Source: Takakia lepidozioides | Lineage: Eukaryota > Plantae > Bryophyta | NCBI GenBank assembly: GCA_030704615.1 | Contig: CM060732.1 | Location: 74,276,001-74,340,000, forward strand | DNA: 64,000 bases | Direction of reading: 5' to 3' | Shown here: positions 9,137 to 61,513 of the stretch, piece by piece | How the letters are laid out: every line of letters begins with the position of its first letter | Numbering within the stretch: position 1 is the first letter of the stretch | Program-made: the position numbers and the translations under genes | Notes under the pieces: generated by a model | The model's input: the letters and a program-made list of their open reading frames with translations, nothing else | Databases searched by the model: none | What the model was told of the DNA's origin: nothing

Positions 9137-9345
9137 GAGTCAGTAGCTCAGTTGGTTAAGTGCACTAAGTGCTACCCAAATGATTCTGGGGTCAAATCTT
9201 GCTACTGACGGGTGTGGTATGGTTGCTAGGTGGTGCCCCATTCCTACGCCTCATGGCAAGTTACTGTGAAAGAGGTTATTTTCTCCTCTCACTATTAAGG
9301 GGCCTGATTTGTGAGCTGTCGCTCCAAGGTGTTTCTTTTTTTAAT
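9137..9345 (+). mobile_element. tRNA-derived SINE-like element or tRNA pseudogene head
   Basis: Pol III A box tagctcagttgg (9144-9155), B box gggtcaaatc (~9189-9198), complementary gtcagtagc (9139-9147) / gctactgac (9201-9209), followed by a T-rich tract. Confidence 0.5.
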
Positions 9346-21789: not shown

Positions 21790-22760
21790 GCATTTGTCTT
21801 CTGGACTTGTTTGGCGGGATCAGCACCGGATTGGCTGCTGTGTTACAGGCAGGTGTACGAGTTTGGCGTTACCTGTATGTGGAGAGGGATGAGACTGCAC
21901 GACGCGTTTTACTTCGCCATGTTGCTCAGTTGGTGCAGCGGTACCCTGAGTTGTTGTCAGTGTCTGCAATTCGTGGATATCAGCAGGCCTTGCCAGCAGA
22001 CCTTTCGTTGCTCGGGGCGTAGGATTTGGAACGGGTTGGCTCCATTGATCTGGTAGTGGCAGGTTGGCCCTGCCAAGGGCATTCATCAGCCGGGCATGGC
22101 AATGGATTGCGAGACTCGAGGTCGGGTCTGTTTTGGGAGATGGAGCAGGTTTTGCGCCACTTGCAGCTTCATTAAGCTGTATCTCCAGCATACATCTTGG
22201 AGAATGTGCCACTGATGAGCGATTCTCGGGCCAGGGTGATGGCCAATGTGCATCAAGTCCGGTCGTGGCTTGGGTCAGCAGTGTTGCTAGATGCAGCTAC
22301 AGTGGGGTCACGGGCTCATCGTCCACGGCTATGGTGGACTAACTTGATGCCACCCGCACTACTCAAGCGTGCATTTGATGGGATGCAGCGGCCAGCACAT
22401 CTCACAGTGGATAACATTCTAGACACATGGAGGCAGTCTCAGCGTGTGAGACACGATGACCGTTCGCCTTTGGCAGTGGTCAACAAGGTGGGTCAACCAC
22501 GAGCAGCATTACCTACACTGCTCAGCTTCCCAGGATCGCATGCTTTTCGGGATAGTGGACCTGGCCTCCTGTGGGATGCTCAGTTGCAGTAGTTAGTGGA
22601 GCCTAATGCTGACGAGCGTGAGTGGGCAATGGGTTTTACCACTGGTACCACGGCGGTGTCGTCCCTTTCTGAGGCATCACGTCGTCAAGTGTTGGGGCAA
22701 GCAATGGATCTCAATTGCTTGACCTGGATTATCAGCTTGGCTCTGGCTGAGCAACGCAGA
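21790..22760 (+). pseudogene. C5 cytosine DNA methyltransferase domain (DNMT3-like) within the retrotransposon polyprotein
   Basis: One reading frame contains motif I LDLFGGI (21801), motif II-like YVERD, motif IV DLVVAGWPCQ (PC at 22068-22073), SGLFWE, motif VI ILENV (22200), motif VIII AHRPRLWWTN (~22315) and motifs IX/X EREWAMGF...SRRQVLGQAMD. Only three nonsense codons interrupt it (22020 TAG, 22173 TAA, 22590 TAG). Confidence 0.9.
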
Positions 22761-24714
22761 GTGCAGAGTACACTTTCCTCAATGGTCTCTCTGCCTATCG
22801 AGACGGTACAGGCAGTGAGTGGGGGCGAGCATGTGAGGACCACGGGGTGTATGCATCCATGGCACACGTGGGAGGTGCTCGAGGTTCAGAGGGAGTTGGC
22901 AGCCAAGGTGGCTATGATGGATGAGGTTGGGGATTCTTCTCGGGTTGAGGAGGTCCTCAAGGATGAGATGATGGGGTAGGATGAGGCCTTGTCATTGACT
23001 GAGCAGGCAGGGAGTACTGCTCAAGAGGTTGCAACATAGCAACCACTGGACGCGTCCTCTACCTCTAAGCCCACTGGACTTAAGGTTGCAGTTACGGAGG
23101 ACAATTGGGAGCTTGACATTGGACCCATTGTCACGGAGGAGAGAGACGACGTATACGGCGGTTCCTGAGGGCTTACAGGAATTGCTTTGCCTTCAGTTTG
23201 AAGGACTTGGGAGCACTGAAGGGTCAAGAGATCCATATTGAGTTGGCCACTGACACGCCAATCTTTTGGAGACCCTATAGATACAGTGACATGGAGAGGT
23301 CTTTAATTCAGATGAGGACTCAAGATCTCTGGGAGGCAGGTTTGGTGGAGCTCTCTGGTGGAGAGTATGCTTCAGCCACAGTGATGCCAGCCAAGAAGGA
23401 TGTCTATGGCAATTGGACGGAGAGACGTATGTGCGGTGATTACCGGCCTGTAAATCGTCAGACCAAGTCCGATAAGTATGCCATGCCAACACCAGAGGAG
23501 ATCTTTGATGCCATCGGGCATGCTAAGGCCTTTAGCACTTTGGATTTACGATCCGGATATCACCAGTTGCCAATCAAGGAGGCGGACAAGCAGAAGACGA
23601 CATTCTGGGGGATCAATGAGCATGGCAAGGATTGTCTATATCAGTGGCGGTTCTTACCATTTGGGCTTAAGAATGCTCCTGCAGAGTTTCAGAGAGTCAT
23701 GGATAGGATTCTAGCAGGGGTGGACTTTGCTTGGTGCTACATAGATGACATCATCATCTTTAGTGTTACGATGGAGGAGCATGAGAGACACCTTCAGGTG
23801 GTATTGGAGCGCTTGAGAGCGCACGGATTGAATTTGTATCCGGGGAAGTGCAAATTTTTCCACAACCAGATTGAGTATCTGGGTCACATGATATATCCTG
23901 GAGGATTGGGGGTACAGCAGACTAAGGTAGAGGCCATTGCACAAAATTCCACGCCCCACGGATGTGAGCCGAGTTCGAGCTTTCATAGGGTTGGCAAACT
24001 ATTATAGACGGTTTGTCAAGGGATTTAGTACCATTGCAAAGGCTCTAACCAAGCTGACAAGGTGGACCCAGGAGTGGCAGTGGGAAGATGAGCAGGAACG
24101 AGCTTTTCAAGAGCTCAAGGCGAGGTTGACCTCGGCGCTTATCCTTAGACGACCTATCAGGGGGCGTCCCTTTCAGTTGCATACGGATTGGAGCATGTTG
24201 GGGCTTGGAGCGGTGCTCACACAGGTGGATGATGAGGGAAGAGAGTTCGTAGTGGCTTATGCTAGCCGCTCGAACAACGCTGCAAATGCTAAGTACAGCT
24301 CATATGAGGGAGAGTGCTTAGCTGCAGTGTGGGCCGTGGCACACTTCAGGTGCTATCTATACGACAATCTTTTCACCCTTGTCACGGATCACCAGCCACT
24401 CAAGTGGTTGATGGAGTCAGACAAGCTTACGGGGAAGCTTGCACGGTGGGCACTCATACTCCAGGAGTATGACTTTCAGGTTGTGCATCGACCAGGTTTG
24501 GTCAATCGGGATGCGGATGGATTGAGTCGCAATCCTTGCATGAGCCAGCAGGATGACACAGGAGCTCGGTGGCATGGTGAGACGGACGAGGAGATGGTGC
24601 CGGGATGGCACGCATCTGCATTTTTGTGTATCTTGGCATCGGGAGGTCAGGTTGGACCTACAACAGGGATGACTGTAGACGGAGTGTCTGAGGACCCTGA
24701 GGCTAGTGCTTACG

Positions 24715-27700
24715 ATCGAGGCTAATCCTGCTGCTACAACCCACTCTACTGGTGCTCTTGTTGTTACGAATCCTACTGTTGAAACTAATCTTGCTGCTAC
24801 GACTCATTCTGCTGATCATCTTTGTTGCTAACACCACTAACAGCGCGCTGCCTGGTAGTGTTGCCTTGCCAATGTCGCCATTACCTGAGCCCAACGCTCA
24901 TAATCCAGATCTTGTCGTTCCGTTAGGCTCGCTTGGTAATAGTGACTATGCTAACCTAGTGGAGGCAGAGGCGTGGTCACCAATTTCTGAGAGGTCTGAC
25001 AGTTCTCTAGACAGTTGTGACCCGGAGTATTACAATTTTGATAATTTTGTTGATCCTGGGCTTGAGTACTTTGAGAGTAGGCAACAAGCAACAAAATTGG
25101 AAAGGGATATTGAATTGTCACAAGAGGTAGATGACCTTATGTGTGAAGTCAGTGAGGAGGATCATCTTGGTTTGAACGTATAAAGAAGGCTGTTGACGGG
25201 GACCTTGTTACGTTAACTAGTCATCACGAGTCCTTGTTTGAAGGCCCTCGCTTGAGTCTATTGCAGTGGTTTCCATACTTACCATGCTGCCTCGAACGCA
25301 CACGGTTTGTCCCACCTGAAACAGGTTAGAATACTTAACACGCAAGCTGTTAAAATTGCGGGTCTGGGTTAGCTGAGCCTTACCAATGTTTGACTTGGCA
25401 TCATGGATAGACACCGCATGCCGAGCATGAAGATCCTCAACAAAGGTATCAAGATCAACCGGATTAGCAACAGTTTAGATAAGAGGGGTAGAATGCAAAG
25501 GAGAAACACACTTGTGACCATACAACAACTCAAAATGAGTCTTCTTGGTGCTAGCATGTACGGCGGTGCGATAAGAAAGAAAATAGGGGAAAAAAGGTAT
25601 CCCACTCCCTGGTAAGTTTGCCATTCTTCTCCAACATTCGGCAAAGAGTTTGGTTGAAGCGTTCCGTGAGACCATTGGTCTGGGGATGGTATGTGGCAGT
25701 GGTGAAATGCTTGATACCAAAGTTGAAACATACCACTGTGAGGAACTGGTTACAAAACTCCTTGCCCTGATCCGTTAGTATCTCCCGATGACACCCATGC
25801 CGCATAAGGATCTCATTGAAAAAGAACTGAGCTACAACATCACTAGCCTTGGAACGCAAAGGCCGGACCTCTACCCACTTAGTCAAGTAGTCAGTAGCAA
25901 TACAAAAGTAGCTTCGACCCTTTGATGTAAGTGCGAGGGGTCCTACCAAATCAATGCCAACACGAGCAAAAGCATGGGTGATAGACAAAAGCTGCAGCTC
26001 ATACGAGACTTCTCCAGGTGATAAATCCACCACACATACTAGCGCATGAATAAATCAACCAGGATCATCAAGAAGGCTAGACCAGCCCCAAGCAGCCAAT
26101 ATGCCATGAGAATCCAAGGCCAAGGGTTGCTGATCTGCACAAAGGAGGTTGAGAAGAGGAGTTGCATCAGTAGCAGCAAGATCATCCAAGGTGAGCATAG
26201 GCTTGCCGACAGGAAGATCAACCCGCGTAAGTACATCAGCGTTGATGTTTTCCTTGTCTTTCTTGTAGACTATATCCATGTTAAATTCTTGCAGAAACAT
26301 AACCCATCTAGCAAACCTGCCATGAAGCTCCCTTGGTTTAATAAGAGCCTTGAGTGGAAGGTGATCAGTCTCCACTACAAATCGGCTACCATGTAAATAT
26401 TGCCTGAAATGCTTCACACCAAAGATCAGGGGTAGACCCTCCTATCAGATATGGAATAATTCCGTTCATGACGATCTAGAGAGCGAGATGCATAAACTAT
26501 CACATGCTCTTTGCCTTCCACAACTTGATATAAGATTGCAGAAATAGCAATATCTGATGCATCAATCTGAAGTAAGAAAGATAATTCAAAGTTAGGAAAT
26601 ATCAAGATGGGAACTGAACAAAGAGCTTTGCGAAGAGTGTCAAAGGCAGCCTGAGCTGGAAGAAGGTCCATTCAAACCTGGCATCCTTGCATACACCTTG
26701 GTCAGGGGGTGAGCAAGTTTGACAAAGTTTTTGATGAAACGCCTATAATAGGAAGCCAGACCAAGAAATGATTTGATACAATGTTTATCCCTAGGAATAG
26801 GAAAGCCCCAAACAGACTCAAGCTTGGCAGGATCAGGAAGCAAACCATCTTTGAACATGATATGACCAAGAAAGTGCAACTCAGGCATAAATAACTCACA
26901 CTTCTTTGGCTTCACCTTGAACCCTGTTGTGCATACTGAAAACACGTTGCAGATCAGTCAAGTGAGAATCAATGGAGAGCAATGTTAGCACGACAACCTT
27001 CACACTTAGAGATGAACTCTGTGACATCCCGGTGAATTCCCAGCCAATAGTAAACCTCCTAGATGCGGGCCACGGTTTTCTTGATACCAAGGTGACCTGC
27101 ATACAAGGAACAATAGAAACGCTCCAATAAAGCATTCAGTTGGCTCCGTGGTGAGGGCAGCAAAGGCGTCCATGGTTCATTCATCATACCAATTTTTCAT
27201 CCCACACTCATCCAACATTCATCCATTCCTTTTTTTTTAAGCAGATTCCCTGAAGCGTGAGCAGATTGAAAACGTAAGCACATTACTGATGCGGACCCTA
27301 AAACCGAGGGAACAAGTGGGCCTATTGCCGTGGACGCGAACTCCACTGCAATGACGCAATCTCCGCTCCATCGGACCGAAAACAGACAGGCTCCAAGACG
27401 ACAATGTGGCACGAATGTGCGATGAAAAAACAATTAAAATCTTGACTTCCTGCCTATAACCCCTATCTATGACACCAGTAGCCACTAAGCAATGTTTGAG
27501 GGTGGTGAGTCTCCTCCAACCTTCAACTTCAAGGAAATGAGCAGTTGGACACAGGAAAGCTAGGCCAGATCTAACCACCTTCTAGGTAATGGTAAGAATG
27601 GTGATATTGACAGGTGCACAAACCAAGGTAGAATTTCTGGGAATAGCTATAGGCACCCCTGTCATGCCACCAGCATTAGGAACATGCCATTGATGTAAAA

Positions 27701-31923: not shown

Positions 31924-34165
31924 TCACCAATAATCCCCGCATGAACAAACCCCATCTTGAAAGTGGTGAAAACGGTTGGCATCTCTTACAACGACTGCTC
32001 GATCAACAATCTTCGAGATGAACTTGATGGCGGTGTGGCAGTCACCACACACCCGAAGGTTCTTAATGACACGGATAGGCATCCCAGGAGGTGTGCTGAT
32101 GAGCCCAAAAGCAATGGCCAGCTTCTCACTGTGGTGGCAAAGAGAAACTGCCTTCTGCTCCTCGTCTAAATCATGCAAGACATAACGTGTGTCAGGCACA
32201 TATCCAGCCTCCTTCATCCAACAAGACAGTCGGTTCAGCTCAGCATGGATTTCCTCAATTTGTGGATGCATTTTATCTTCTACTGCAAATGTATGGACCC
32301 GGTTGTTGACCTCAATGCAGCTGCGACCTGGCTCCTTTCTGACACCTCTGTCCTCCATCATTTTTCTTACCTTGGCTTTGTCATCCCACCTGCCAGCTGC
32401 AGCATAGATATTTGAGAGAAGCACATAAGCTGCAGTATGTTCTGGATCCCACTTGAGAAGGCATTTTGCAGCATGTTCTGCAAGGTTCACATCACCATGG
32501 ACTCTGCAGGCACCAAGCAATGCACCCCACACTGAACCATCTGGTTCAATGGGCATTTTCTTAATTAACTCCTCTGCCTCCTCCAATCGTCCTGCACGTC
32601 CAAGAATGTCCACCATACAGCTAAAATGCTCAACTGTAGGCATGAGGCCATGGTGTTGGCTCATGGAATCCAAGTAGTGTTGGCCTTCCTCCACTAGGCC
32701 CACATTGCAACTGTAGGAGAAGAGATATAAATGTGATACCATTGGGCTGTCAGCCTTCCTGTTGCATTTGTTCAAATAGTTGGATAGCTTCCCTACCATA
32801 TCCCTGCTGGGCATATCCTGCAATCATCGCATTCCATGATATCACATCGCGTTCACCTATTTTGTCGAAAACTTGACGTGCACCTTTCAAGCTCCCACAT
32901 TTGGAATACATTGTAACCAGTGTATTCTCCAGATTAATATATGAAGGAACTCCAGCTTTAATGATGTCAGCATGGACCTGCCTGCCCTTTTCCAGGGCTC
33001 CTAGGTTAATACAGGCATTGAGAACAGAAATGAACGTCACCTTGTTGTGGGTTACCCCTTCCTGTTGCATTTGCTCATAGATTTTGAAAGCCTCTTCTCC
33101 AAACCCGTACTGAGCATATCCTGATATCATTGCACTCCATGAAACCACATCTTGATCAGCCATATTGTCAAAAACTTGACGTGCATTTTTCATGCTCCCG
33201 CATTTAGCATACATTTCTATAAGGGCAGTCTCCAAATTAATATGTGATGCAATTCCAGCTCTGATGATGTCAGAATGGACCTCTTTGCCCTTTTCTAGGG
33301 AGCCTAGGCTGGCACACGCATTTAGAACACAAATAAACGTTACCCTGTTGGGTGTCACCCCCTCTTGCTGCATTATCTCATAGAGCTTGAACGCATCCAT
33401 TGCAGCACCATATTGAGCATATCCTGCGATCAATGCACTCCATGATACAACATCTTGCTTAGCCATGTTGTCGAACACTCGACGCGCATCCTTCACACTC
33501 CCGCATTTGGCATACATGTCAACAAGGGCAGTCTCCAAGTTGATATGTGATGCAATTCCAGCTTGAATGATGTCAGCATGGACCTCTTTGCCTTTTTCCA
33601 CAACTCCTAAGGTGGCACACGCACTGAGCACACAAATGAATGAAACCCTGTCGGGCGTTATCCCTTCTGATTGCATTTGCTCATAAATCTTGAAAGCCTC
33701 CTCAGAATGCCCACACTTGGCATATCCTGCCATCATTATAGTCCATGTAAATAAATCTCGTTCAGGCATTTTGTCAAACACTTGGCGTGCATCCACCAAG
33801 CTCCCACATTTGGCATACATGTTGACAAGGGTGCTGAGAAGAAACTTGTTTGACTTCAATCCAGTTTGGATAATGTGGGCATGCACCTGCTTCCCCCCTG
33901 CTAGGTCTTTCATTTTGATGCACTCCTGTAAGAGACAGACGTAAGTATTGGAGTCTCCCGACTTGCGTTGTTGGTTCAAAATGTGCAGCGCCTGTTTCAG
34001 TTGTCCTGCCTTACATAGTGTCCTGACATCCCTGAAAGCCCCAGACAAGTTCTTTGTGGTTCCTTCTCCTGCTATTCCTTCAGAAGCAGTGGTGATGGTG
34101 AAGGTGCTCCCCCTGCCATCAGTCTGCTGTCCAACAAGTACCTGTGCCTGATTCAGACCTTTCAT
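31924..34165 (-). pseudogene. PLS-E-DYW class PPR (organellar C-to-U editing factor), disrupted
   Basis: P-L-S triplets in 34165-32750. E1/E2 and DYW domain with PG box, HSEKLA, CGDC and terminal DYW in 32700-31924. In-frame TGA at 32752-32750, then QPNGITFISLL, then a frameshift at ~32715. No obvious transit peptide. Confidence 0.8.
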
Positions 34166-36981
34166 TCTGCATGACTCCAAACTTTCAACTCAAAACCCAC
34201 TTAATATGCATCAAAGCTCGTAGACGCTCAATAAAGGACCTCTTTATGATGACAGGCTCTTGCAGCACAATTATGGGTTAGAAACCAAACTATCCAGCCT
34301 TAGTTGAAAAACTTGCATCCTCATCAAAGTGATACCCGTTGAGTTGTCAGCCTGGTGCTGCATGGTGTACATCAGCATTAAAACCATCATCAGATTGTAC
34401 TCGACCTTGTGTCATGGCAGCTAGCTCTGCTTTCACCCAAGGAGGATTTGACAAACTCTCAATCCAAAGGACCTTCTTTGAATGCTTATGTAGAAAATCA
34501 TGAGATCTTGGACTTTTCTGTAAAGAGCAACAAGGGGTAGCTGAGCAGCTAGAGCTTCAACCACAGCCTCACAAAGACCACTCTACAGCCGCCAAGGTCA
34601 TCTCAAACAACATACCACGACAAAGCTACTTCAATGCCACTGTGGCTTAGCAACTGAGAGAAAAAGCACTACAGTAAGTGTAAAAGACGAATATATTTCT
34701 TGGTATTACTGCAACCATGTTCCAGTCTTCATAGACTCACCATATAAGACCTGTTGTCCCACCACTGCAAGGGATCTGACATGAACTCCTGCCACAGTCG
34801 TCCTATGCCTATGGATTGACCTGCATGCAAACACCACCCAAACAAGTCTTTAGGCATCTCTTAATTGCCTTATGCTGTACACTTGAGGGCATAGTTTGAA
34901 GGCAATGCTCCTGCAGCCAGTTGTGGGTTTTTTACCCACTGGTGTATGATAACTCAGCTCCAGAACACCATAGTCCCTGTGAATAACCACCGACAATCTC
35001 GTTGTAGGTGATTAGAATTTTGATGTAGACATCATGCCAGCAGCAATATTGATTCCAGCACTGCCACTCTAGCCCACAATCACACAGGTGTGACACATGG
35101 ATGCAATTGCACTGCCAGAGAGAGAGAGAGAGTTCCACGAGGAGCAAGAGCTTAAGGGGACGAGTGTGGAACAAGAACCAACACCCCGGAAGTCCTACAG
35201 AAAGAGAGAGACGTTCATTGTATGAAAAATCTGCACCCACAATCCTCAACAAGGGCGGCTAACGTTCACAAGGAAGCGAGACATCAACCAGTGCCTCTCG
35301 TACTTCTCTGTGAATCCTTGTCCATCCGTAAGTGTGACTGGATAATTGTGGTTTTACACGGCTCTAGTAGGATCACATCTATTCGTATCACGTCTATGAG
35401 AAGTAGCTTTCTACATTAAGGAGTGAGCTCAAAATGTTGCACCTCATGGAACTCTGCAGCCAGTTTTCCAGTAGACCGTGGAGGCAGCCCTGTCCAAAGT
35501 CCACCAAACTTCCGCCTTGAGAGTAAATCCCGGTGGCGACATTCTAGCCATGCAAATAAATGCCCGTCTCTCTCTCTCTCCCCCATGCAATCGATTGAAA
35601 AAATATAAATAGGAGATGAGGAGCTCACGTTCACCTACAGCCCTTGCATGTGCCAACTTCTTCGACCAAAATGGGCGTAGCACTAGCTGGTGTGTGTCAA
35701 GGGAAATTCGGGAACTGTCTCGCTCGATCACACCAGAATTTGCTTGAGAAACCACGTAATGCACGAGGAGCTTGATATCTCTACCTTCCTTTGACTTCTC
35801 TGGAGACTTGGGAGGCATCAAAGCCATCGCTAAACCGGGGAGAGAGACAGCTTCCGCGAGATCTCGCCCGGCCTTTTCCCGGGCAGCTCTAAATGGATGA
35901 ACGCCCTCGTTCATGGATGACAAGTGGGAAAGAGCGGGAATGAGTTTTGAATGAGCGGGACTGTCTCTCTCCCGCTCAGACGTTCCACGACAGCTATGCG
36001 GCAGCTGCTTACTGCATTCGATGCGTAGTGATTGACGTACTTTTCTCCACCACAGCTATGGCGGCAGCTGCTGGCTCCGTTGTGCTTCCTTGCATGCGAG
36101 GCCTGATCGTTCACATGCGTAGTGATTGACGTACTTTTCTCCCCCACAGGTCGTAGATGTTCTTCCTTCCCTTCTTCACCTCCGTCGCACATGCTTGCGT
36201 GCGAGACTGTGGTAGGAGACATGCGAAAGCAGGGGGGCATTCACGTGCAGAATGATTCACATTGGAGTTGCACCACAGGTCGTAGGGTAGATGTTCTTCC
36301 ATAGGTCGATCTCCGTGTAAGCTTGAGAGGATTGAAGAGGAGGAGGAAATATGAGTGTTGTGGTCAATATGCATCAGCGGCGCACCATAGCCAATGGCAG
36401 GCAAAATCAAGATCCCAACACAGGTACTGCTTTTCTCTATCTTTCTCGCACAATATCGACGTTAAGGGATTGCCTCCAACCTGGGCTACTGAGATGGAGG
36501 CTGTAAAATCTTGTCAAAGGAGACGTTCCCAGTTTCAGTTGTAGCTAAGGTAACTTTGCAAACAAAAATTGCATTAAGTGACAATTGAAATCCTAAGGAA
36601 TGTCTTGCTTGGTCCGCGCAGCTGTTGGGGTGAAAGATTTAACGCCAAAGAAAACGTGCCCGAAACTTGAGAAGTCTATTCAGGAGGTGCTCAATCATGC
36701 CCGAAACACTTCTGGTACGTACGGGTCACTCTTTTGTGTCCGAGAATGGCTTTCTTAGGGTCTTGTAGCGCGAGATGCTCCATGAAATTCATGTTCAAAC
36801 AATGCAGTACTTGGAGCCCTGCCGTGAAATTGCAACGATCATTTTCTTAACCTAGACTCGTGAGTTGTCTCACTGTTCCAAGGTGAAAGTGCGGCATCCT
36901 TGACCTCGGTACTGAGTAGCAACTGTGGTTGAGCTGGAGTTGAAATGATACTCACTAGATTGGGAATGTGCTCCATATTCA

Positions 36982-49300: not shown

Positions 49301-52300
49301 TGTAGTGTCCTCAGCCATGTCTGTTGCCATGAGATTGTCTGATGAAAATGAAGTTAGGCAGAAAACTTCCCTGAACTTGTTTCCAGTCTGTGACATGGGG
49401 GAGGACATCTTGGATGACCTCAAGGGTCTACCCACTCTCGGCACTAGACTGAAATTTAAACTCAGGGCAGGAAGCCTACCTTTGAACAGCAAACAGAAGC
49501 AGAGAGGAAAGGGAGAGTGCAATTGCCCGTTGTGTGGGCAATCTGAAGACAGTATTCATTTTCTGATACACTGTCCGGGGGTTCTCTCACCAAAGAGACG
49601 CTCTCTTCAAATCTATTAAGGGAATTGTGCCTGTACCCCTGTTTACCAACTTTGAAAGTCTCGAAGCTGAGCCAAAAGCCCAGGCCCTCCTGAGGCCTAG
49701 TTTTTGGGCAAATCACACACAGCAGATTGATGCTTGTGTGAAGGGATTTCTAGAGGATATCTGGAAAACCCGGATTAATTCTTTATATGGAGGTAAGTCT
49801 TACTACCAACGTCAGCCCCTGACAGAGGTAGGTTCTGTCCCTTTTGTTCCCGCTCAAACTGGGCACGGGGTCAATGGCCACAAGGCTACGGCAAACAACA
49901 TCTTATGAGTACAATCTTTTATTCCCTTTGCATGGCTGCAGGGACCTCATATCTCAGATCTCAAGGGCTCCTGTGGATGTCCAGAAGAAGGGTCTGAAAC
50001 TTTCCATATCAAGATCATTTTATACAAGGCTGAAGGATCTAGGCACTACATTACATGAGCACTGGTTAATGTGCCGTTCTCCTTCGCCATGCTCGACTTA
50101 GCAAAATATTTGTTATCTACAGCCTCCTTTGTGTCTGGAAGATGTTGTTCTGGACCTGGTTTGAGACACAGGTTTGTACTTCTCATGCATTTTGTTAAGT
50201 ATTTTTTGCAGATTTTTGCCTGCTAATGGCTCCCAGCAGCTGTTACATTTGGAGGCTATATCTGGTGAACCTGTTTCTGGTGGTGGCATGAATCAGCCAA
50301 CGAAGCAGGCCTTGAATAGCGTCGGAATGCTAACCCGAGAAACAGGTGATTACTCCAATCATAGTCTCACCAAGTCATTGACTTCCAAAAAAGCCTCAAT
50401 TTTACTTCTGTATGGATGTTCTAAACCTGAATTCTGAAATGAATCCATGTAAGGTAGAAACATGAAGGCTTAGGACAGTACTGTCATTCAGTGCTACTAG
50501 TTCAGACCCTTTGTTAGGGGGTTGTGGTACTGAGAGACAGGAGAGACACTCTCATCACACTTGTCACTTGAGATTAGACAAGATTTTGTCTTTTCCATGG
50601 ATATCTAAACTGTATTTCTCACTTTGGCATTTATTTCTGCCAGCCATTTGGTAACGAATGAATGGATTCTCTTGGCAAAGGCTCTGTGCCAGTCTTAATC
50701 ACATCCAGACAAATGTGACTTAATGACCCTTTGAGCCTAAGCAACAACCATTGAAGAAGCCATACCTGTGGAGACAACCATCATATTGAAAAGGAGATGT
50801 GTCTTTGGCGTTTGTATGCATATGCCATGAGATAGTTCCCTCTCTACTGCCTAAGCAAATATTCTTCAACCACAGGCTGGTTGTTGGCGAAGAAGCTTTG
50901 CACACTACTCCAGTGTACATGTTTTCTTTCAACCAGTTTTTTACTGTCAGCAGAATGTCTTTGACGTATGATTTTTCCTTCTATGCTGTTTTCTTATTAA
51001 TAACCAAGCTGATCAGTTGTGTTTTGAACCAGAAACGAAAGACCATGCTGCAGGTTCTGTCAGCATGACTGGGTGTTGCTCGTTTTGGGTGCAGAGAAAA
51101 TGGCAGTTTCCAGGTCCTCAGAATGTTATGTTCCCCAAAGAAATATCCTCTCTTTTGATGTTGAGAAGGAAGTTTCAGGCTCCAACATCCACCCTAAAAA
51201 TGAGCCATGCGATGTTGGTGGTGCAACAACAGCTTCATCTGTGGATACCAAAAGTGAAGAATCTAGATGGAGTCTTCAAGGTTGGTTCTCTGTTTCTGGG
51301 GTTATACTTCGTACTATTAATTCGTCAGTGCATCCCTACTTGGATACTGATGAGTAGATGCTTGGTATATGGTGTTCTCAAGAGGGTACAGAAAGCAATA
51401 ACGTGTTTGGTTATTGTTGCATCCTGATGCATATCCCTTTCCTAAGGTAGTTCACACTGATTCATTGAGGATTTACATAACAAGCAGTCAGGACTAGGGA
51501 GCTGATATCTATGTTTGCAGAGGGTGGTGAAGCTGTTGGCCAGGCCAGGCAAGGTGAATTGTCCCAAGTGAATGTGGAGTTTCAGGTGCGCTGGTGAGAA
51601 TCCTATTCATCTGAGGATAAGCATTTTGGCAATTATTACTTCAGGCAGTCCACCAACAGGCAAATCTGAAACATTCTAGTATACAGCCACAATAGCCCTG
51701 TCAGACAATATTTGTTAGTGGTTCAAGACAATTGCCCTGTCATCGGTGTGCGAGTTCAATAGGAAGAACCACATTGCCAGCTGCCACTCCATCAGCATGC
51801 AAGTCAATCCAACCAGGTCGGATGTGGGGTTTAGTGGTTCCAAAGGAATGTGAGGGCTAAAGTGTTAATTTTTAGGGACATTGTATCAACTAAACAGGAT
51901 CTATTAGCATGGTGAGTATAGCCATTGTAGTCAAATGTCAACTAAACTCCAGAATATACATGGCTGCAGTACCATTAGGCAGGAATGTCATGTCACTTTG
52001 GAGGTCAGGAGAAAGTGGTGGCTCTGTGGGAGTTTCCACTGTCTTCAAGATTCTCTGTTTAACAGCAGCTTCCTTGTCTAAAACTGAAGTGGGTAATTTT
52101 GGGTGTCTTTTTCAGGAGATCTTCTCTGGTCACGCAAGCCCAATCACTCGGTGCCGCTTTTCTGCAACAGGAGCTAACATTGCAAGTGCATCCGTGGATG
52201 GCACTGTGAGGTGACATTTTTCAACATTGCTACCTTTTCTGGGAAATCCATGGCAGCTACCCAATGTCTCCTTCTTACAATGTGTCTCTAGCGTCTATCT

Positions 52301-55300
52301 AGGATATTTGATTTCAAAGTTCAAATGACAGTTTCATACAGCCAACATGCAAGTTATAATATGAAAGCTCTCCGGCTGTTTATTTTTGTGGTTTCCTTCA
52401 GAATATGGACACCAGATAATGCTGCAGCAACATCATCCCGAAATGCAACTATCTATAGTGGTGCTGAGATTATGTCATTGGAATGGGAGTACAAGTCTGA
52501 CCGCTTGGTACTTCCCTCTAAACCGCACACGAACAATAAAACTTTCTGGCCCTGCAATATCCTGTTTGTTAAGATGATATGTTATTTGAAGTGTAGTGCT
52601 AATATTTTAATCGTAGCTGCCTTGTTCTCTGATCATTGACACATGAAGGATGAGTTCCTCTATTGTGGGTCCATGTTGAGATATGCACTTGTGGATTTCA
52701 AAACCAATTAACTTGATCTCAGTTGGGATCCTGTTCTACGTACTGGTAGTTGCTGTTAGGAACAGCAGAGCGGGGCATAAAAGCATGGAATGTGGAGGCC
52801 AAGCGTGTAGTTTGTGATCTTTCAACTGATGCTGCATTTCCACGGTAAGTGAGATCTCTCTGGTCCGATGAGGTCCATTTGTCTAGCCTTACCTCTTTTA
52901 CTTGAGATAGACACATGACACTGTTATGTGGTCATTCGTTTGTAGCCTATCTCAATTGTGCTGTCAATTCGTTCCAGTCTATGCATGCTAGTGGTTCAGG
53001 CAGCTGGGCTCGTTCTGTGCTGAAAGACTTGAAAGAGAGTGATTCATATTTTCAAATTATTTGTTCCTATAGAGCTTAGTTTTTGAGTCTGATGGTGGCT
53101 ACAGCTTTAGAATGTCTATCTTTGATGTGTAGGGTAATGGACCTGAAATGCAGTCCAACAGACCCTGTGTTTTGTTGCGCAGCTGCATCTTCAACAGTGT
53201 AAGGCATCACTGCAGTCACTCTAACTCACTCTTCACGCTGTTTGATCTATTAGATGTTGGCAGGGTATTTGAGATGCTTTGTCAAACCTTTTCTATGATT
53301 CTCCTTCGTTGCTTTGTATGGTTGGTGATGACTGCTTCCGTCACATATTGGAGGCTTCTGATATCCAGGCGAAGGCGAGGAGTCCATTCCTAAAAAATTG
53401 TGCCCTTTGTGTCTAGCTTGTTTATAGTTTTGAAGTTTCTACCTTTTTTCAGTTTGCATCTGGCTTTCACAACCCATGTGTTTTTTGCATCTACTGTGAA
53501 ATTTGTTACTGTAGTCAAGATTACTCTAGTACTCAAATGTGCTTTAAGGAGTTTAGTGAATAGAGTACTGTTCTAAATGAGGCTGGAAACTACCTGGGTG
53601 CTTTCAGGCATGAAATGGAAGGAATGGGGGCGCTTGGTTTTGGCTCTTTGACTGTCTGGAATATGCGCACATGGAAGCCCATGGCAAGTGACTCAATATC
53701 CGTACGAGCATTGTTGTTTCATCAAGGACAGGGAGTTAGATTTCTGCAACTTCTGTTGAGACCAAATGTGGTTTGTGTTGCAGAGTTTTCTTCCACTTGG
53801 GGAAGACCCTCCAGTTGTGACCTCTGTGTGTTTCAACCACAATGGAAAAATTGTTGCAGCTGCAGCAACAGATGGCATGATTCGTCTTTTTGGTATCCTT
53901 GAGAGGTCACAATAACTGGTCTTGGAGGAACTGAAAAGGATTCCGAATATGAAGCACAAGATGTCCGGAACCCCCACTTTGGTAGTGTCATCCATGTACC
54001 ACATGTCCACAATAGAATAGTGGGATACATGTATCTACTTCGCTGACCTGCACATTTCTTCTCTTGAGATATACTCTTGCAAGAAATACTCAAGATCACC
54101 CGTTGTTATTTGTGTGTGGAAGCACTTTTCCACTTGTTAGACAGTTTTGAGAGGTTTGACAGCATGCAGATGTGTACAGAATGTGACACAGAAAATTTCA
54201 AGGTTCTTTGATGGTTGTCCTTCATTTCATATCAGATATAAAGGGCTGTTTACCTATCACAGGGTGGCCAGCCCATGATGGTTGTGCGGTGTCTTGTGTT
54301 CGGTTTGGTCATGACCAAGCAAGCATTTTCAGTTTGGGCACTGATGGCAAGGTAACCTTCTTGCTCATGTGTCTTTGTGATTGAGGGTTGTCTTTCTTGC
54401 CAGCCTCTCTGTTGATTCAATTTTATTTTTGTGTTCTATTTTGTCTGAAGAGGTTGTTGCAGGCAACATGCCGAGACTTTTATGGGTTTGATTTTGGAAC
54501 CTAGAAAGTGACAGTCGATGAAATAGCAGCAAAGCGTAACCGTTGGTTGGAGAAATGAGAATGGCAGGTTTTTGAGTGGAGTTTGCACAATCAAGGCCAA
54601 ATCCTGCAGTCCCAAGATGCCAGCCAGTGCGTGATCAGCTCAAATCCCTCCCACTCAGTTACGCTTAGCTTTGAGAGAGCTTCAATTTTGTTCAGCAGGT
54701 TTTTGGCAAATTGTATAAGATTACAGGTTTGGTTTCTGTTTCCTAACAATGAACCTGTTGGGCTCTGAGCACCTAGCTGTCTTAGCAGTCACAGCCATGA
54801 TAGACCTCTAATGAACATTCCTTACCATGGTTCTTGTTTTGGATGGAGCAGATTCTGTTCACTGGAAGGATGGGAGCTGCCTCGACACGAAATGGCATTA
54901 GATGCATGCGGAAAGCACTTGTTATTAACATCTAACCTCACTAAATCACCTATATATAACGTGAGTATCTTGTCCTCTCAGCATCTTGGATGCATGTTCA
55001 TTTGACTGACTGACTTATCTCCATGTCTTACAATGCACTATATGCTTTCTTTCTTTGGTTCCGCCATCCATTGACCTCTACCTCTTTCTCTCTTCAGAAG
55101 CAGAATTCAGCATACTTATCTGGAACTAGAAGTCAAGGTAGTTTTGCATTTTCATCACATTTTAGTGTCAAGTGTTTTCTTTGGCTGGGTCTGCAGTGGG
55201 ACAGGTCCAGGTTAGCTCAGAACACTCTGGAGCACACGGGTGCAATTACATCGGTGGATTGGCATCCCTCAATGCCTATGTATTTGACTGGCTCTGCTGA

Positions 55301-55352
55301 CCACTCTGTACGTGTCACATCAATTGTTGGTGCTTCCTCTGCTCTTTGTTAG
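46383..55352 (+). CDS. WDR91: WD repeat-containing protein 91 homolog (LisH-like N-terminus, coiled coil, WD40), multi-exon
   Basis: Exons 46383-46502 (VKEFLLFRGFTHT), 47739-48009, 48305-48427, 48619-48760, 49942 onward. WD40 exons FSGHASPITRCRFS, VTSVCFNHNG, GWPAHD, HTGAITSVDWHP...GSADHSVRV. Stop at 55350-55352. Confidence 0.85.
48428..48618 (+). other. U12-type AT-AC intron in WDR91
   Basis: 5' ATATCCTC, branch-like TTCTTGAC at 48597-48604, 3' AC. Splicing restores DSI-R-LPALLK. Confidence 0.8.
48869..49914 (+). mobile_element. 5'-truncated non-LTR retrotransposon (LINE) in a WDR91 intron
   Basis: ORF with LINE C-terminal motifs RPALEYGSAIW, AVRGEFG, LRAGSLPL, CPLCG..EDSIHFLIHCP. 15-bp TSD tcttttattcccttt at 48854-48868 and 49915-49929. 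Confidence 0.85.
53893..54235 (+). other. U12-type GT-AG intron in WDR91
   Basis: 5' GTATCCTT, branch-like TCCTTCAT at 54218-54225 close to the 3' AG. Splicing restores IRLF-D-IKG. Confidence 0.75.
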
Positions 55353-56374
55353 CAAGTCCAGGGAATGGTGTTAGCTGATAGAGCCCACCTCCAAAAGGGG
55401 CAGTAGCTGTGTCTCTCAGTTACGCCGGCTTCGGCCTGGAGTCTTACTTTTCTTCAAGTGTTAGCTGGAGTCGAAATAATAAAAATCATCCTACAGTAGG
55501 CACTCGTTCAAGAATCTGTGGTCACTAGAATGGCTTACACAGTTTTGTACTCCCAAATTCCTTGCAAATGATTAATTAGTAGCTGTTATGGACAGCTTCT
55601 TTAAACACTGTTGGTTGGGGCACATTCTGGAAGTTGAAGAGCATTGTGTCAGACATCTCTTGTAGTGGAACGATAAAGGAGCTAAAGAGGAGGTTGGTTC
55701 TTAAATTAAAATACAATCAGTTCACGCATTCCAATAATGCCATCCTTTCTTTTGAGATTAGAGGAACATTTAGGTGACAAACTGTACTCCTATAAACCCA
55801 TATGAACTACCCCTATAAACTTAACTTGTTGCACTGCATTTCTCATTCGGGTGAATTTATGGGTTCTTTTCTACAATGACTTAGCCTGGCATGGCTGCAA
55901 TGGTTATGTATAGCATTGAAAATGACTCATAATATATAAACTCATTGATCACAACCTGATTTCCACTTCGCTTAACTGTGTGGCAACATTAGCTTTTAGA
56001 ATGGTAGTGATATATTTTTTCGAAAAGGGACGAAAGCCCTGACATACATTACATAGTAAGGCAAACATAACCTTGCCAAGAATGCCACAAAGGTTCGTAA
56101 TCAAGAGAACCAGGGAAGATGAAGCCTACAGGATAATACAGAATTTGACATTACACCAGAAAATTCATGTAAGTATAATTGTCGTTGATATATGTGGTAA
56201 TGTTTTACATAAGAAAGGAAACCTGGGAGCGACAGCTCACAATTCAGGCTTTTCGCAGACGAGGGGGACAAATGAAGCCCCATTCGAGTAAGAGGGATTA
56301 CCCCCATTCAAGTAATACAGTCACTACCGGCCACTTAGAGACGGCCTACTCTTGGCAGCATCGTCGTTGCAGTC

Positions 56375-57952
56375 CTACTTGTGAGTAGACATGAAGGTTT
56401 CGTAGAAGTTGAGACCATCAAACTGCGGTGCAATCTTCAATGGCGCACCTGTTCGCACCAACTTGGGCTCTTGCTTCTGATCAGGGTGCTCTGATGACTG
56501 TGGCTTAGCACGTTCTTGAACTGGAATTGAAGAAGTGAAGGTTTCGTAGAAGTTGAGACCATCAAACTGCGGTGCAATCTTCAATGGCGCACCTGTTCGC
56601 ACCAACTTGGGCTCTTGCTTCTGATCAGGGTGCTCTGATGACTGTGGCTTAGCACGTTCTTGAACTGGAATTGAAGAAGTGAAGGTTTCGTAGAAGTTGA
56701 GACCATCAAACTGCGGTGCAATCTTCAATGGCGCACCTGTTCGCACCAACTTGGGCTCTTGCTTCTGATCAGGGTGCTCTGATGACTGTGGCTTAGCACG
56801 TTCTTGAACTGGAATTGAAGAAGTGAAGGTTTCGTAGAAGTTGAGACCATCAAACTGCGGTGCAATCTTCAATGGCGCACCTGTTCGCACCAACTTGGGC
56901 TCTTGCTTCTGATCAGGGTGCTCTGATGACTGTGGCTTAGCACGTTCTTGAACTGGAATTGAAGAAGTGAAGGTTTCGTAGAAGTTGAGACCATCAAACT
57001 GCGGTGCAATCTTCAATGGCGCACCTGTGCGCACCAACTTGGGCTCTTGCTTCTGATCAGGGTGCTCTGATGACTGTGGCTTAGCACGTTCTTGAACTGG
57101 AATTGAAGAAGTGAAGGTTTCGTAGAAGTTGAGACCATCAAACTGCGGTGCAATCTTCAATGGCGCACCTGTTCGCACCAACTTGGGCTCTTGCTTCTGA
57201 TCAGGGTGCTCTGATGACTGTGGCTTAGCACGTTCTTGAACTGGAATTGAAGAAGTGAAGGTTTCGTAGAAGTTGAGACCATCAAACTGCGGTGCAATCT
57301 TCAATGGCGCACCTGTGCGCACCAACTTGGGCTCTTGCTTCTGATCAGGGTGCTCTGATGACTGTGGCTTAGCACGTTCTTGAACTGGAATTGAAGAAGT
57401 GAAGGTTTCGTAGAAGTTGAGACCATCAAACTGCGGTGCAATCTTCAATGGCGCACCTGTTCGCACCAACTTGGGCTCTTGCTTCTGATCAGGGTGCTCT
57501 GATGACTGTGGCTTAGCACGTTCTTGAACTGGAATTGAAGAAGTGAAGGTTTCGTAGAAGTTGAGACCATCAAACTGCGGTGCAATCTTCAATGGCGCAC
57601 CTGTGCGCACCAACTTGGGCTCTTGCTTCTGATCAGGGTGCTCTGATGACTGTGGCTTAGCACGTTCTTGAACTGGAATTGAAGAAGTGAAGGTTTCGTA
57701 GAAGTTGAGACCATCAAACTGCGGTGCAATCTTCAATGGCGCACCTGTTCGCACCAACTTGGGCTCTTGCTTCTGATCAGGGTGCTCTGATGACTGTGGC
57801 TTAGCACGTTCTTGAACTGGAATTGAAGAAATCCTAAGCAATTCATCCCAGGAAGGACCGTTCGGTAAATAAAGGGCACCATATATGCGAGCCTCTAAAT
57901 AACCGATCGAGGCTGCTCCTGCAACAGCCGCAAATCTCCCCAAGCTCGACAT
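56375..57952 (-). CDS. Intronless tandem-repeat protein (~525 aa): short N-terminus plus 10 x 48-aa unit ending in APQFDGLNFYETF
   Basis: First ATG at 57952 (MSSLGRF; the ORF-track start at 58162 is TTG). Open frame to the stop at 56375. TATA box upstream. Confidence 0.7.
   Translation of the reverse strand: MSSLGRFAAVAGAASIGYLEARIYGALYLPNGPSWDELLRISSIPVQERAKPQSSEHPDQKQEPKLVRTGAPLKIAPQFDGLNFYETFTSSIPVQERAKPQSSEHPDQKQEPKLVRTGAPLKIAPQFDGLNFYETFTSSIPVQERAKPQSSEHPDQKQEPKLVRTGAPLKIAPQFDGLNFYETFTSSIPVQERAKPQSSEHPDQKQEPKLVRTGAPLKIAPQFDGLNFYETFTSSIPVQERAKPQSSEHPDQKQEPKLVRTGAPLKIAPQFDGLNFYETFTSSIPVQERAKPQSSEHPDQKQEPKLVRTGAPLKIAPQFDGLNFYETFTSSIPVQERAKPQSSEHPDQKQEPKLVRTGAPLKIAPQFDGLNFYETFTSSIPVQERAKPQSSEHPDQKQEPKLVRTGAPLKIAPQFDGLNFYETFTSSIPVQERAKPQSSEHPDQKQEPKLVRTGAPLKIAPQFDGLNFYETFTSSIPVQERAKPQSSEHPDQKQEPKLVRTGAPLKIAPQFDGLNFYETFMSTHK
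56392..57830. repeat. 144-bp tandem repeat x10
   Basis: Units appear identical except for a T/G variant at 57029, 57317 and 57605. Confidence 0.95.
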
Positions 57953-58199
57953 GCTGCACAATTGACAGAGGCGGATCCGAATAAGCCTGACAGATGAATG
58001 AGCAACCTTTGAGTGCGACACGCGGGAAGCAAACGAACTCCGGTTGCAAGGGTTGAATTGCGCGCTCCAAATCAACCAACACAGATCATGTGCGATTTTC
58101 CAGGCTCTCCGACAACTATCTCGAACACCCACCAGCGCACTCAGGGCCCAGGAACTCGTCAATGAGCACGTTTGTGAAACAAGTTGGCAACTCGCTGAG

Positions 58200-58207
58200 C
58201 TTTTATA
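58200..58207 (-). promoter_or_regulatory. TATA box (TATAAAAG) of the repeat-protein gene
   Basis: cttttata on +, about 250 bp upstream of the ATG at 57952. Confidence 0.4.
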
Positions 58208-58867
58208 CTAGGCTGCCAGACCCTCCGATTTTAGTAAAAGTTGACAACTCCAAAAGTTGTTCGATGTGTACAAATAAAGATTGAAAAGTACATCATTGCC
58301 ATGTGGGACTTGGGATGACGTGAAATAGAAAAAACCTTGTACGTGATTGGACATGGGGTCCTATTATAGCTTCCACCCAAGCCACATCTGGGCTACAAAC
58401 AAAATAACCTTTTCACAGTAACCTCGCAGATATACTGCCATTGCCATGCAGTGACTATCTTTGGAGTGTGTTTAGAAAGTGTTTAATTTTATGGTGGTTT
58501 TGCTTACGGTGTCTATAGTGGTTCTCTATGTTTCTTTTTCCTATTCTTGGATTTGCAAGGAAACAGCAGCCCCTGCAACTGGGCGTTGAGGGGGAAAATA
58601 AGTATTAGATACCAGACAAGATGTTCCATCCATCCACTGGAGAAAGGTGACAACCTGGTGTATGAGTTCCCGCCTTCATTCGGAATGGAGTGAGTGCGAG
58701 GAGGTTTGTTGGAGCTCAGGCTTCGAGCTCGCCCTGCAGCAGAGGATTGATCGTAGAGCAAAGCTTACTTGGGAGGAGGTTTTAGTCAGCGTACTCTTTG
58801 AGATTGGGTGAGCAATCTTCAGCTGCTTGCTTCAAGACCTTAGAGGGAGGAGAGTTGCTGGATAGGG

Positions 58868-60067
58868 ATGGGACGTGCTAGAATTGAGATCAAGAGATTG
58901 GAGGACGAAGCCAAGGCAAAGGTGACGTTTTCAAAGCGTAGGGATGGGTTGCTCAAGAAAGCGAAAGAGTTGGCTATTCTTTGTGACGTTGATGTGGCGG
59001 TAATTGCGTTCTCTCCTTCTGGAAAACTAGTACAGTTCTGTAATCGGTCTATTGAGGATGTGATAGGACGGTTTGACTTATCCCATGCACGCCAAGAGAA
59101 GATTTTTCAGATGAATCACTGCAGTGATGTGGGGAACTTGAGCACGTTGCGTGATCAAGTTGGGAAATTGCAGGCAGAATTGAGTGCCTCAAAAGAACTT
59201 TCAGGAATGTTGTGGGGAGATGAAGTTTGCCTCCAACGATTGAATCTTGCGGAGTTGGAGAGATTAGGAGCGCAATTGCGCGAATCTCATCAAAAGGTTC
59301 TAAACTACATGGGCTGTTTGCGGAGCTATGGTGTTCCTGCCGGGTCATGCCTCAATGTCCAGATGGCTGCTGAGACATGCGAGGTTTCGGCTCTAACACA
59401 TCAGGGAGTGGAGCCACGTCATGAGGTAGAGGGATCAGGAACAGAGCAAAGCTCATCGACCCTACATGGTGCTGAGGCTAACGGAAGTATTGAGGCTATT
59501 ACAGGAGGATCAGGTACAGGGCATATGTACAGCGCATCCCAGCTAGAGGCCGATCAGAGGCAATATTCTGAGACTCTTATGGAGGTTCTTTATTCTTATC
59601 AGGCAGGGACCTCCTCGGAAGAGGAGTCTGAAGGATCTGAGGCTATTACCGAGCTTACAGAGGGATCAGGTGCAAGATCAGGTGCATCCCAGAGCCTACA
59701 GGAGTGGCAAGATTCTGAGCAACTTCTGCAGGATCCTTGTGCTGATCCGGAAGAGGAATCTGAAGGATCTGAGGCTATTGCAGAGGGATCAGGTGCAGGG
59801 CATATGTGTAGTGCATCCCAGAGTCTACAGGAGTGGCAAAATTTTCGGCAACTTCTGCTGCAAGTTCCTTTTCCTGATCCGACAGGATCTTGGGAAGAGG
59901 ATTTTGAAGGATCTGAGGCTATTACAGAGGGATCAGGTGGAGGGCACGATATGCGTAGTGCATCCCAGAGCCTACAGGAGTGGCAAGATTCTGAGCAACT
60001 TCATTGTGCTTATGAGGCGGGGTACTGGGAAGTGGAAGCAGGGAATCGAGACATGATTCTCGATTAA
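58868..60067 (+). CDS. Intronless MADS-box transcription factor, MIKC*-like, with acidic C-terminal repeats
   Basis: MGRARIEIKRLE...VTFSKRRDGLLKKAKELAILCDVDVAVIAFSPSGK...SIEDVIGRF, then a K-like heptad region and repeated EEESEGSEAITEGSG..SASQSLQEWQ units. Confidence 0.85.
   Translation: MGRARIEIKRLEDEAKAKVTFSKRRDGLLKKAKELAILCDVDVAVIAFSPSGKLVQFCNRSIEDVIGRFDLSHARQEKIFQMNHCSDVGNLSTLRDQVGKLQAELSASKELSGMLWGDEVCLQRLNLAELERLGAQLRESHQKVLNYMGCLRSYGVPAGSCLNVQMAAETCEVSALTHQGVEPRHEVEGSGTEQSSSTLHGAEANGSIEAITGGSGTGHMYSASQLEADQRQYSETLMEVLYSYQAGTSSEEESEGSEAITELTEGSGARSGASQSLQEWQDSEQLLQDPCADPEEESEGSEAIAEGSGAGHMCSASQSLQEWQNFRQLLLQVPFPDPTGSWEEDFEGSEAITEGSGGGHDMRSASQSLQEWQDSEQLHCAYEAGYWEVEAGNRDMILD
59480..60003 (+). 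repeat. 3-4 degenerate coding tandem repeats in the MADS C-terminus
   Basis: Recurring gaaggatctgaggctatt...gggatcaggt...gcatcccagagcctacaggagtggcaa. Confidence 0.75.
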
Positions 60068-61513
60068 ATTATCTTAGGATCATGAAAATCTTGATCGCTG
60101 CAAAAGTGGCAAGTCTGTATAATTGTTGATCCTGGTGCTGATCCATTGGAGAGCCCTTGGTCTTAGCTCTAGGAATTAGAAGGAGTACTAGGTAGCACAC
60201 CGAGCTTCTTTGGTAGTGATACTGTAAGGGATGTATTACAATTCTTATGGAAGCACTGCTCAGTACACTACCAAATTTGTTGGTCCTGAAATTTTAACAC
60301 ACTTAAATCACATGGAAAAGCTGCAACGGTGGCCATTTTGTATTCATTGTCTATGTAAGTTGAGTGCACGGGACCCATGCGTTGGAACGGGGCACCGCGT
60401 TTGGTGTTGGGCATCGGCAGTCCGTGATGTATCCGCGAGTGCCCCTAAAGGATTTAGTGAGAATCCTGCTGCAATAGTCAAAGATTTTGTGGATAGGACG
60501 TTAGGGATAGATTGTAGAGACAGTATGCGTTAACAGGTAGCATAGCTGAAGTTTTGAATAAGCATTGTTGATCCAGCTGCTCAAAGCATGTTTTCGAGTC
60601 CCAATGGACCGTTGGCTGAACTTGTTGACGGATTGAGCCCAAGTTATGCACAGGCAAGCACAAACTCCCCATCCAAGTAGGCATACAACACCTCGGGCTA
60701 TCTGTAACCTGGCATCATCAATCAGGCGCTGTAACTTGGACAATGCATTCTTCCATCATCTCCATTTTATCATATTACAAGGAAAACTGGGGCTGAGACT
60801 TCAGCCTCAGGCATAAATACCTAGAAGGAGCCAAGATATGGTCTAGATCATATGCTCTGTCTCATGTGCAAACGTTTGATGAGTACATTCTCTCTAACAC
60901 ATTGGATTTCCTTTGTAGATATTCTCATCCAATTCTAAGTCACTTTCTCCCCCTCATTTGCAAATCTCTTAAGAGTTCATTCTCTCCCAAAATGAAATCG
61001 ACAAACTGCCTGTCGTGAAGTAACATTCCACAACCAGATCAGATCATGCTCCTGTGATTTCTTGTTCCCAGCACAAGAATCATAGGGCAGTGGCCATGAC
61101 ACATAGAGAGATTCATTAGAGCATCACAATGAGAGTGATAGAACTGAAGTATCACATTGAGGGGCTAGAGAAATTTGAGCATCCTAGGAGCCAAGTCTCC
61201 ACTGTACAGGAAAATGTCTATTATTTTGACTTGACTTATCTGCTGCAACTAATGTCATGAGCTACTATGACTATCCTAAATTGGTGATGGAATCCCCACC
61301 AAGATTGTTTACCTGGGGGTTCTGCTAATATTTCTCTAGGATTTTCTAGATGAAATGTCACCTGTTTCATTTCCAAGTAGCTGAGAGCCCCACATTTGGC
61401 CCTTGTCACCCCATCTATTCGTAGTTCAAGACCTGATCCAGGACCATGGCGAAATAATCCTCTGGGAGACAACAAGGTATCACTAGGTTTGAAGGTGGCA
61501 AAACATACAAAGC

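Follow-up and report, generated by a model that had tools for sequence, protein, structure and literature searches.

A tenfold in-frame tandem repeat of a conserved land-plant protein motif in an intronless gene of Takakia lepidozioides

Results

The repeat gene

The gene described in this work lies within a 64,000-nucleotide stretch of Takakia lepidozioides contig CM060732.1 (positions 74,276,001 to 74,340,000, assembly GCA_030704615.1), here called the window, and is composed of three parts: a head, an array of tandem units and a short native tail (Table 1). Its reading frame is the only one of the six open across the array, the other five being full of stops. TRF reports for the array a period of 144, 10.0 copies, 99% matches and 0% indels with a score of 2857, the strongest of the nine TRF rows in the 64 kb, and the motif pattern finds ten exact matches in the window against 0.01 expected by chance. 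This confirms the initial annotation, made from the letters alone, which had described ten 48-residue units in a single open frame.

The units are nearly identical. In a unit-by-unit comparison the sole internal difference is a synonymous change of CGA to CGC in units 2, 4 and 6 in coding order, which are units 9, 7 and 5 on the plus strand; the variant and its 288-bp period are found as first reported, at 57029, 57317 and 57605. Other differences are confined to the edges of the array, where unit 1 begins with Ile and the later units with Thr (one base). Across each unit boundary a tryptic peptide specific to the junction is encoded (IAPQFDGLNFYETFTSSIPVQER). Upstream of the ATG, a five-codon open reading frame begins at 58089.

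Table 1. Positions of the repeat gene and of its component features in the window
Feature	Position	Strand	Description
Intronless ORF, 525 aa, 58.8 kDa	56375-57952	-	1578 bp; hydrophilic, GRAVY -0.82
Head, 40 codons	57833-57952	-	Corresponds to the first coding exon of moss relatives (120 nt, phase 0)
Tandem array, 10 x 144 bp (48 aa)	56393-57832	-	Charged proline-rich linker, then motif closing each unit
Motif copy 1, APQFDGLNFYETF	57689-57727	-	Recurs at 144-bp intervals, finally at 56393-56431
Native tail, 5 codons and stop	56375-56392	-	After last unit only; opens with 5-of-6 match to exon-2 start
Ancestral intron site, empty in window copy	57832-57833	-	Left edge of repeat
Span of the three synonymous variants, 288 bp apart	57029-57605	-	Unit-by-unit comparison
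Unit-to-unit junction	56505-56560		
TATA-like box	58202-58207	-	255 bp upstream of ATG; consensus match only
Short high-copy dispersed element, about 50 bp	56205-56272	.	3' region of repeat gene; summed contig depth >2000x single copy

AlphaFold models of the product are of low confidence (mean pLDDT 36 and 55), too weak for a fold comparison, with helices in the head only and no predicted structure in the repeat. The best 19-aa hydropathy window scores 1.08, and there is no hydrophobic leader, in agreement with the earlier remark that a clear signal peptide is absent. Nine of the ten motif copies are internal, unlike the C-terminal norm of the family described below. If expressed, the product would be a 59-kDa protein of the cytosol, unprocessed and for the most part disordered, in which a putative binding motif is present ten times.

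Head-to-head with the repeat gene stands an intronless MADS-box ORF (SRF-TF, E 3e-22; 58868-60067, plus strand), which has its own, older in-frame repeats at 59470-60002 with a spacing of about 144-147 bp, a period similar to that of the adjoining gene; paralogous contigs of this ORF are found at single-copy depth. On the other side, a multi-exon WD40 gene (about 51900-55350, plus strand; WD40 match on its last ORF) ends in convergent orientation about 1 kb from the stop of the repeat gene. The dispersed element in the 3' region has a second copy at 9303-9329, and smaller multi-copy pieces lie at about 58340-58380 and 58556-58601. Rfam gave no matches for 54000-61000.

The protein family and its motif

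The motif identifies a family of uncharacterised land-plant proteins of 80-95 aa with a C-terminal AP(E/Q)(F/L)DGLxxxET. Scanning metagenome contigs with a degenerate DNA pattern yielded 55 homologous loci, all with a single motif and 50 with the stop 4-6 residues past its ET (6 residues in the moss relatives); the statement in the initial annotation, that the motif has homologues and is normally single and C-terminal, is thereby borne out. Four loci carry a 23-residue extension past the motif and one is open-ended (L018, L021, L025, L037 and L034), and these constitute a natural test of the need for a terminal motif. The 55 loci contain 22 distinct C-terminal contexts, and the set is therefore redundant and derived from few plants. 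The form of the motif present in the window, APQFDGLNFYET, is common to fourteen loci.

Exact look-up found seven of ten ORFs in the protein collection, as unnamed Populus, Sphagnum and JGI/ENA proteins and as Arabidopsis AED96461; family members include P0017 of Sphagnum, P0002 of Populus and P0028, the Arabidopsis protein. In Populus two annotated family copies are nearby, judging by their names, which hints that dose may matter in this family. The UniRef label of AED96461 is "Avr9/Cf-9 rapidly elicited protein", which implies fast induction by stress or an elicitor, and we take the protein to be the product of At5g54165. A gene At5g54165 with the same label is tabulated as induced in the accessible text of PMC8213393.

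The head and first unit of the window ORF align with a 94-aa Sphagnum protein (L041/P0017) at 36% identity and 59% positives over 91 aa, the head included, which by itself points to a moss-like host. In an alignment of ten sequences from moss to Arabidopsis the window head shows little likeness to the angiosperm heads, and the only invariant columns are the residues A, P, D, G, L, E and T of the motif. As the motif is invariant while the linker is free to vary, the element is probably a short partner-binding motif. The window ORF carries ten copies of the family motif AP[EQ][FL]DGLxx[FY]ET and departs from the family layout, one motif 4-6 residues before the stop in a protein of less than 100 aa, in having 525 aa with the last motif alone terminal. 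On its sequence it is a descendant of the family and a structural variant of it.

Database searches added little. The ESM Atlas returned unnamed Streptophyta clusters (at 0.91, 0.90 and 0.88; 73-93 aa) and no named cluster. Pfam gave no credible match for the head, the unit or five homologues, and the family has no model in the copy searched; the matches of the full ORF are sums of weak repeated stretches and are not real. Word-based protein searches gave no homologue, none of 217 longer candidates reaching E 10 or better, a result which says little because known homologues sit in that collection. A search of 1.84 billion representatives detected no multi-motif relative, but was weak, since it missed Sphagnum homologues scoring 39-42 bits locally; its single match, a Giardia repeat protein (P0001), is spurious, no single stretch of it scoring above 4.4 bits. 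There were no matches among PDB sequences or viral contigs. A literature search with the motif in various spellings did not find it and turned up no functional study of the family.

Four small-protein groups were considered as relatives and rejected. The wound-induced polypeptides of DUF3774, a candidate on account of the head, gave no Pfam match at E up to 10 with the head, the unit or five homologues. A link with At4g27652/4/7 was dropped, as a cloning primer in the available part of the supplement of PMC4619001 encodes a different N-terminus. FAMOSS/PSEP1 was set apart by its published description, which in the accessible text gives a conserved first 30 aa with a predicted membrane helix and a poorly conserved C-terminus (10.1101/2021.11.24.469821), whereas the present family is conserved C-terminally. 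Marchantia SGF17, as far as the accessible text of PMC9901580 describes it, does not fit.

Intron, repeat edges and paralogs

In four of the five genomic loci tested, moss relatives have a 187-nt GT-AG intron in phase 0 after coding nucleotide 120 (L035, for which no intron was listed, was left out of this count). The window copy has no intron, and a contig passes through 57801-58331 with 0 differences. The repeat begins at coding nucleotides 121-123, which is the ancestral exon-2 start, and each unit corresponds to exon 2 as far as the last residue of the motif. What this analysis adds is that the gene lacks the intron of its moss relatives and that its unit begins precisely where the ancestral exon 2 did, in a 5-of-6 microhomology. 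The two repeat edges read ATTTCT and ATGTCT, and the junction ACTTCT. About eleven distinct 5-of-6 pairs were possible (17 rows, overlaps merged), five of them in frame, and hence the coincidence with the exon edge is suggestive, not compelling; one longer match among the possible pairs would have yielded an 84-bp unit. Intronless members occur also in angiosperms, where the ORFs of L010 and L050 are contiguous and present in the protein collection.

A single-unit, intron-bearing paralog is found in run X3 of the same sample, on an 8.7-kb contig at single-copy depth in which a match to the head is followed by about 310 other letters and then by one unit. It is also present in two runs from other samples, guessed to be RNA, where head and unit are joined by a contig of 59 bases; the same two runs contain a second family member, matching in the motif only. 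No RNA run was listed for the stretch, and these two have no contig at least 95% alike to 57686-60200, which is no evidence either way on expression of the repeat gene. Another paralog, the closest at about 96-98% alike, has the same tail as the window copy. Among the gaps listed between window copy and paralog all are blocks of 3 or 9 bases, and as in addition the motif is undamaged and does not differ from that of the mosses, the expansion probably took place in a functional gene.

Short-read support for the array

The array was checked in four DNA runs of one sample from one study, possibly the source of the assembly itself. Among the short-read contigs aligned to the last unit and the 3' flank, the head-to-tail junction is present, in run X1 as a joint going back 144. 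Depth in the unit contig is 6.7-8.5 times that of the single-copy flank, and in all four runs the unit-to-unit junction contig has 6.2-8.4 times the flank depth. These data support an array of many units, roughly seven to ten by depth, and speak strongly against one or two; exactly ten is unproven because contig depth is a crude measure and not a copy number, and no contig spans the array.

Discussion

Origin and likely fate of the array

In coding minisatellites and other intragenic tandem repeats, near-identical units are repeated in frame with a higher-order pattern of variants, and the best reading of the array is a very young coding minisatellite of this type, youth being indicated by the single variant site among units. 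It differs from an ordinary one in that its unit contains the only conserved element of the protein. We consider it probable that an approximately tenfold in-frame expansion took place recently in an intronless paralog, starting from a duplication at microhomology and proceeding by slippage or unequal crossing-over, and that it has been tolerated and is near-neutral. The recurrence of the variant in alternate units argues for recombination or slippage at the DNA level, and on this the initial annotation, which had proposed a very recent expansion by unequal crossing-over, holds. The order of events would be loss of the intron, a single first duplication between short microhomologous stretches, a point mutation in a second unit that produced an A/C pair, duplication of this pair en bloc (288 bp), and more steps of one unit each through slippage or unequal crossing-over. 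Tolerance seems likely because the frame was kept and other family copies remain. The neighbouring MADS gene, with in-frame internal repeats of its own, supports this explanation. Against it, microhomology alone leaves the exact match between repeat edge and exon-2 start unexplained, and near-neutrality is weakened by the intact motif, by paralog gaps in multiples of three (among the gaps listed) and by the Populus pair. The units themselves are too young to give a signal for or against selection.

Would a protein with ten motifs do anything new? At most it would behave like the normal protein made stickier or given at a higher dose, and most likely it would have little effect, since nine motif copies stand away from the C-terminal position of the family. 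In an alternative which we regard as unlikely, the ten motifs on a flexible chain would bind several partner molecules, the product would serve as a high-avidity scaffold or sponge, and expansion would have been favoured. The frame and TATA-like box are intact, the invariant motif set in a variable linker is what a binding motif would leave, and the five loci extended past the motif or open-ended suggest that a free end may be dispensable. The near-terminal position kept in 50 of the 55 loci speaks against such a function, as do the motif having no known partner and the failure to find a multi-motif relative among the 55 loci or in the search of representatives, the latter being weak evidence. 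Quite doubtful is the broader proposition that the gene is expressed as a ten-valent form of an ancient land-plant binding motif, and that it may stem from a reverse-transcribed spliced RNA, intron loss and repetition of exon 2 being one event.

Taken separately, an RNA-templated origin, in which a spliced or circularised transcript was reverse-transcribed, so that the intron went and the repeat began in one step, with later amplification at the DNA level, appears distinctly improbable. It would account for the start of the unit at the exon-2 start, the repeat edge being 0-2 nt from the ancestral splice site of a gene that has no intron; to hit a 3-nt target in about 225 upstream positions has a chance of about 1%, a post-hoc estimate, but once microhomology is granted the match is no more surprising than about 1 in 11, or 1 in 5 among in-frame pairs. 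Circular-RNA-derived pseudogenes are likewise intronless, and their non-colinear junction has the start of an exon on its left, according to the accessible text of PMC4897178. In the window, by comparison, the right edge is neither a splice donor nor an exon end, and the array lies within a gene that is complete with head and upstream region. Canonical back-splicing is at odds with the lack of a GT at the right edge (the unit ends in TTC and ATG comes next; a circle defined by the nearest GT would measure 146 nt). Moreover, no poly(A) is present within 474 bases past the stop, the paralog contigs have sequence in common upstream of the TATA-like box (with a variant at 58227), and repeated rounds of one circle cannot place one variant in every second unit.

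CLE precursors are secreted and processed proteins. The multi-CLE precursors, such as rice CLE75 and CLE76, resemble the window gene in that a motif normally present once, at the C-terminus, recurs at even distances between similar linkers in one exon; amplification has been put forward for them as a hypothesis (accessible text of PMC2254619). Their units are diverged, whereas those of the window are near-identical, bear an unrelated motif and follow no leader by hydropathy. The polyubiquitin genes offer a second parallel, with head-to-tail, protein-identical units homogenised at the DNA level, as here. The ubiquitin unit, though, comprises the entire folded protein and has a dedicated site for cleavage; the window unit is a partial, apparently disordered piece without a recognisable one, and we know of no match between its junction, YETF-TSSI, and Gly-Gly, dibasic or Asx cleavage sites. 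That the product is a polyprotein of either style, cleaved to ten active peptides, is on these grounds very hard to accept, even with a head and regularly spaced motifs in one exon as in the multi-CLE precursors (PMC2254619, accessible text): a leader resembling a signal peptide is lacking by hydropathy, excised units would have neither the conserved 40-aa head nor the native tail, and the family shows no sign of processing. The polyubiquitin-style polyprotein first suggested for this locus is accordingly a weak analogy, and the near-identical units give it no signal of selection. Least credible of all is an assembly artefact with one or two units in the genome, for although no short-read contig bridges the whole array and all four runs are from one sample of one study, the junction is present in contigs at several times single-copy depth and the variants follow an ordered pattern.

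A young coding tandem repeat is a common kind of event, and this one affects a redundant gene. What makes it useful is the motif to which it points, conserved all the way from mosses to Arabidopsis, for which the copy of Pfam searched has no model and on which the literature search found no study; the natural ten-copy form could serve directly as bait in a search for the partner and to test the requirement for a C-terminal position. Were the array expressed and selected, an intracellular short motif would have been amplified as in the multi-CLE precursors; were the exon-edge match the trace of an RNA-templated event, intron loss would be tied to the birth of a tandem repeat; and an expressed ten-valent form would provide a natural high-avidity reagent and a dosage experiment for the family.

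Other features of the window

Broken pieces of LTR-type retroelements (reverse transcriptase, RNase H, integrase) are found at 19576-24725 on the plus strand and at 25551-26441 on the minus strand. Upstream of the reverse transcriptase, the ORF at 22176-22592 has no Pfam match at E 0.01 and contains ENV and RxR-like words of the kind known from cytosine methyltransferases. Transposase-like ORFs were recognised by eye at 15272-17007 (minus strand), with no Pfam match for 15275-16333. A PLS-type PPR gene (31924-34189, minus strand) contains a 303-bp repeat as well as E, E+ and DYW domains, and is split between two frames, presumably by an intron or a frameshift, near 32750-32823.
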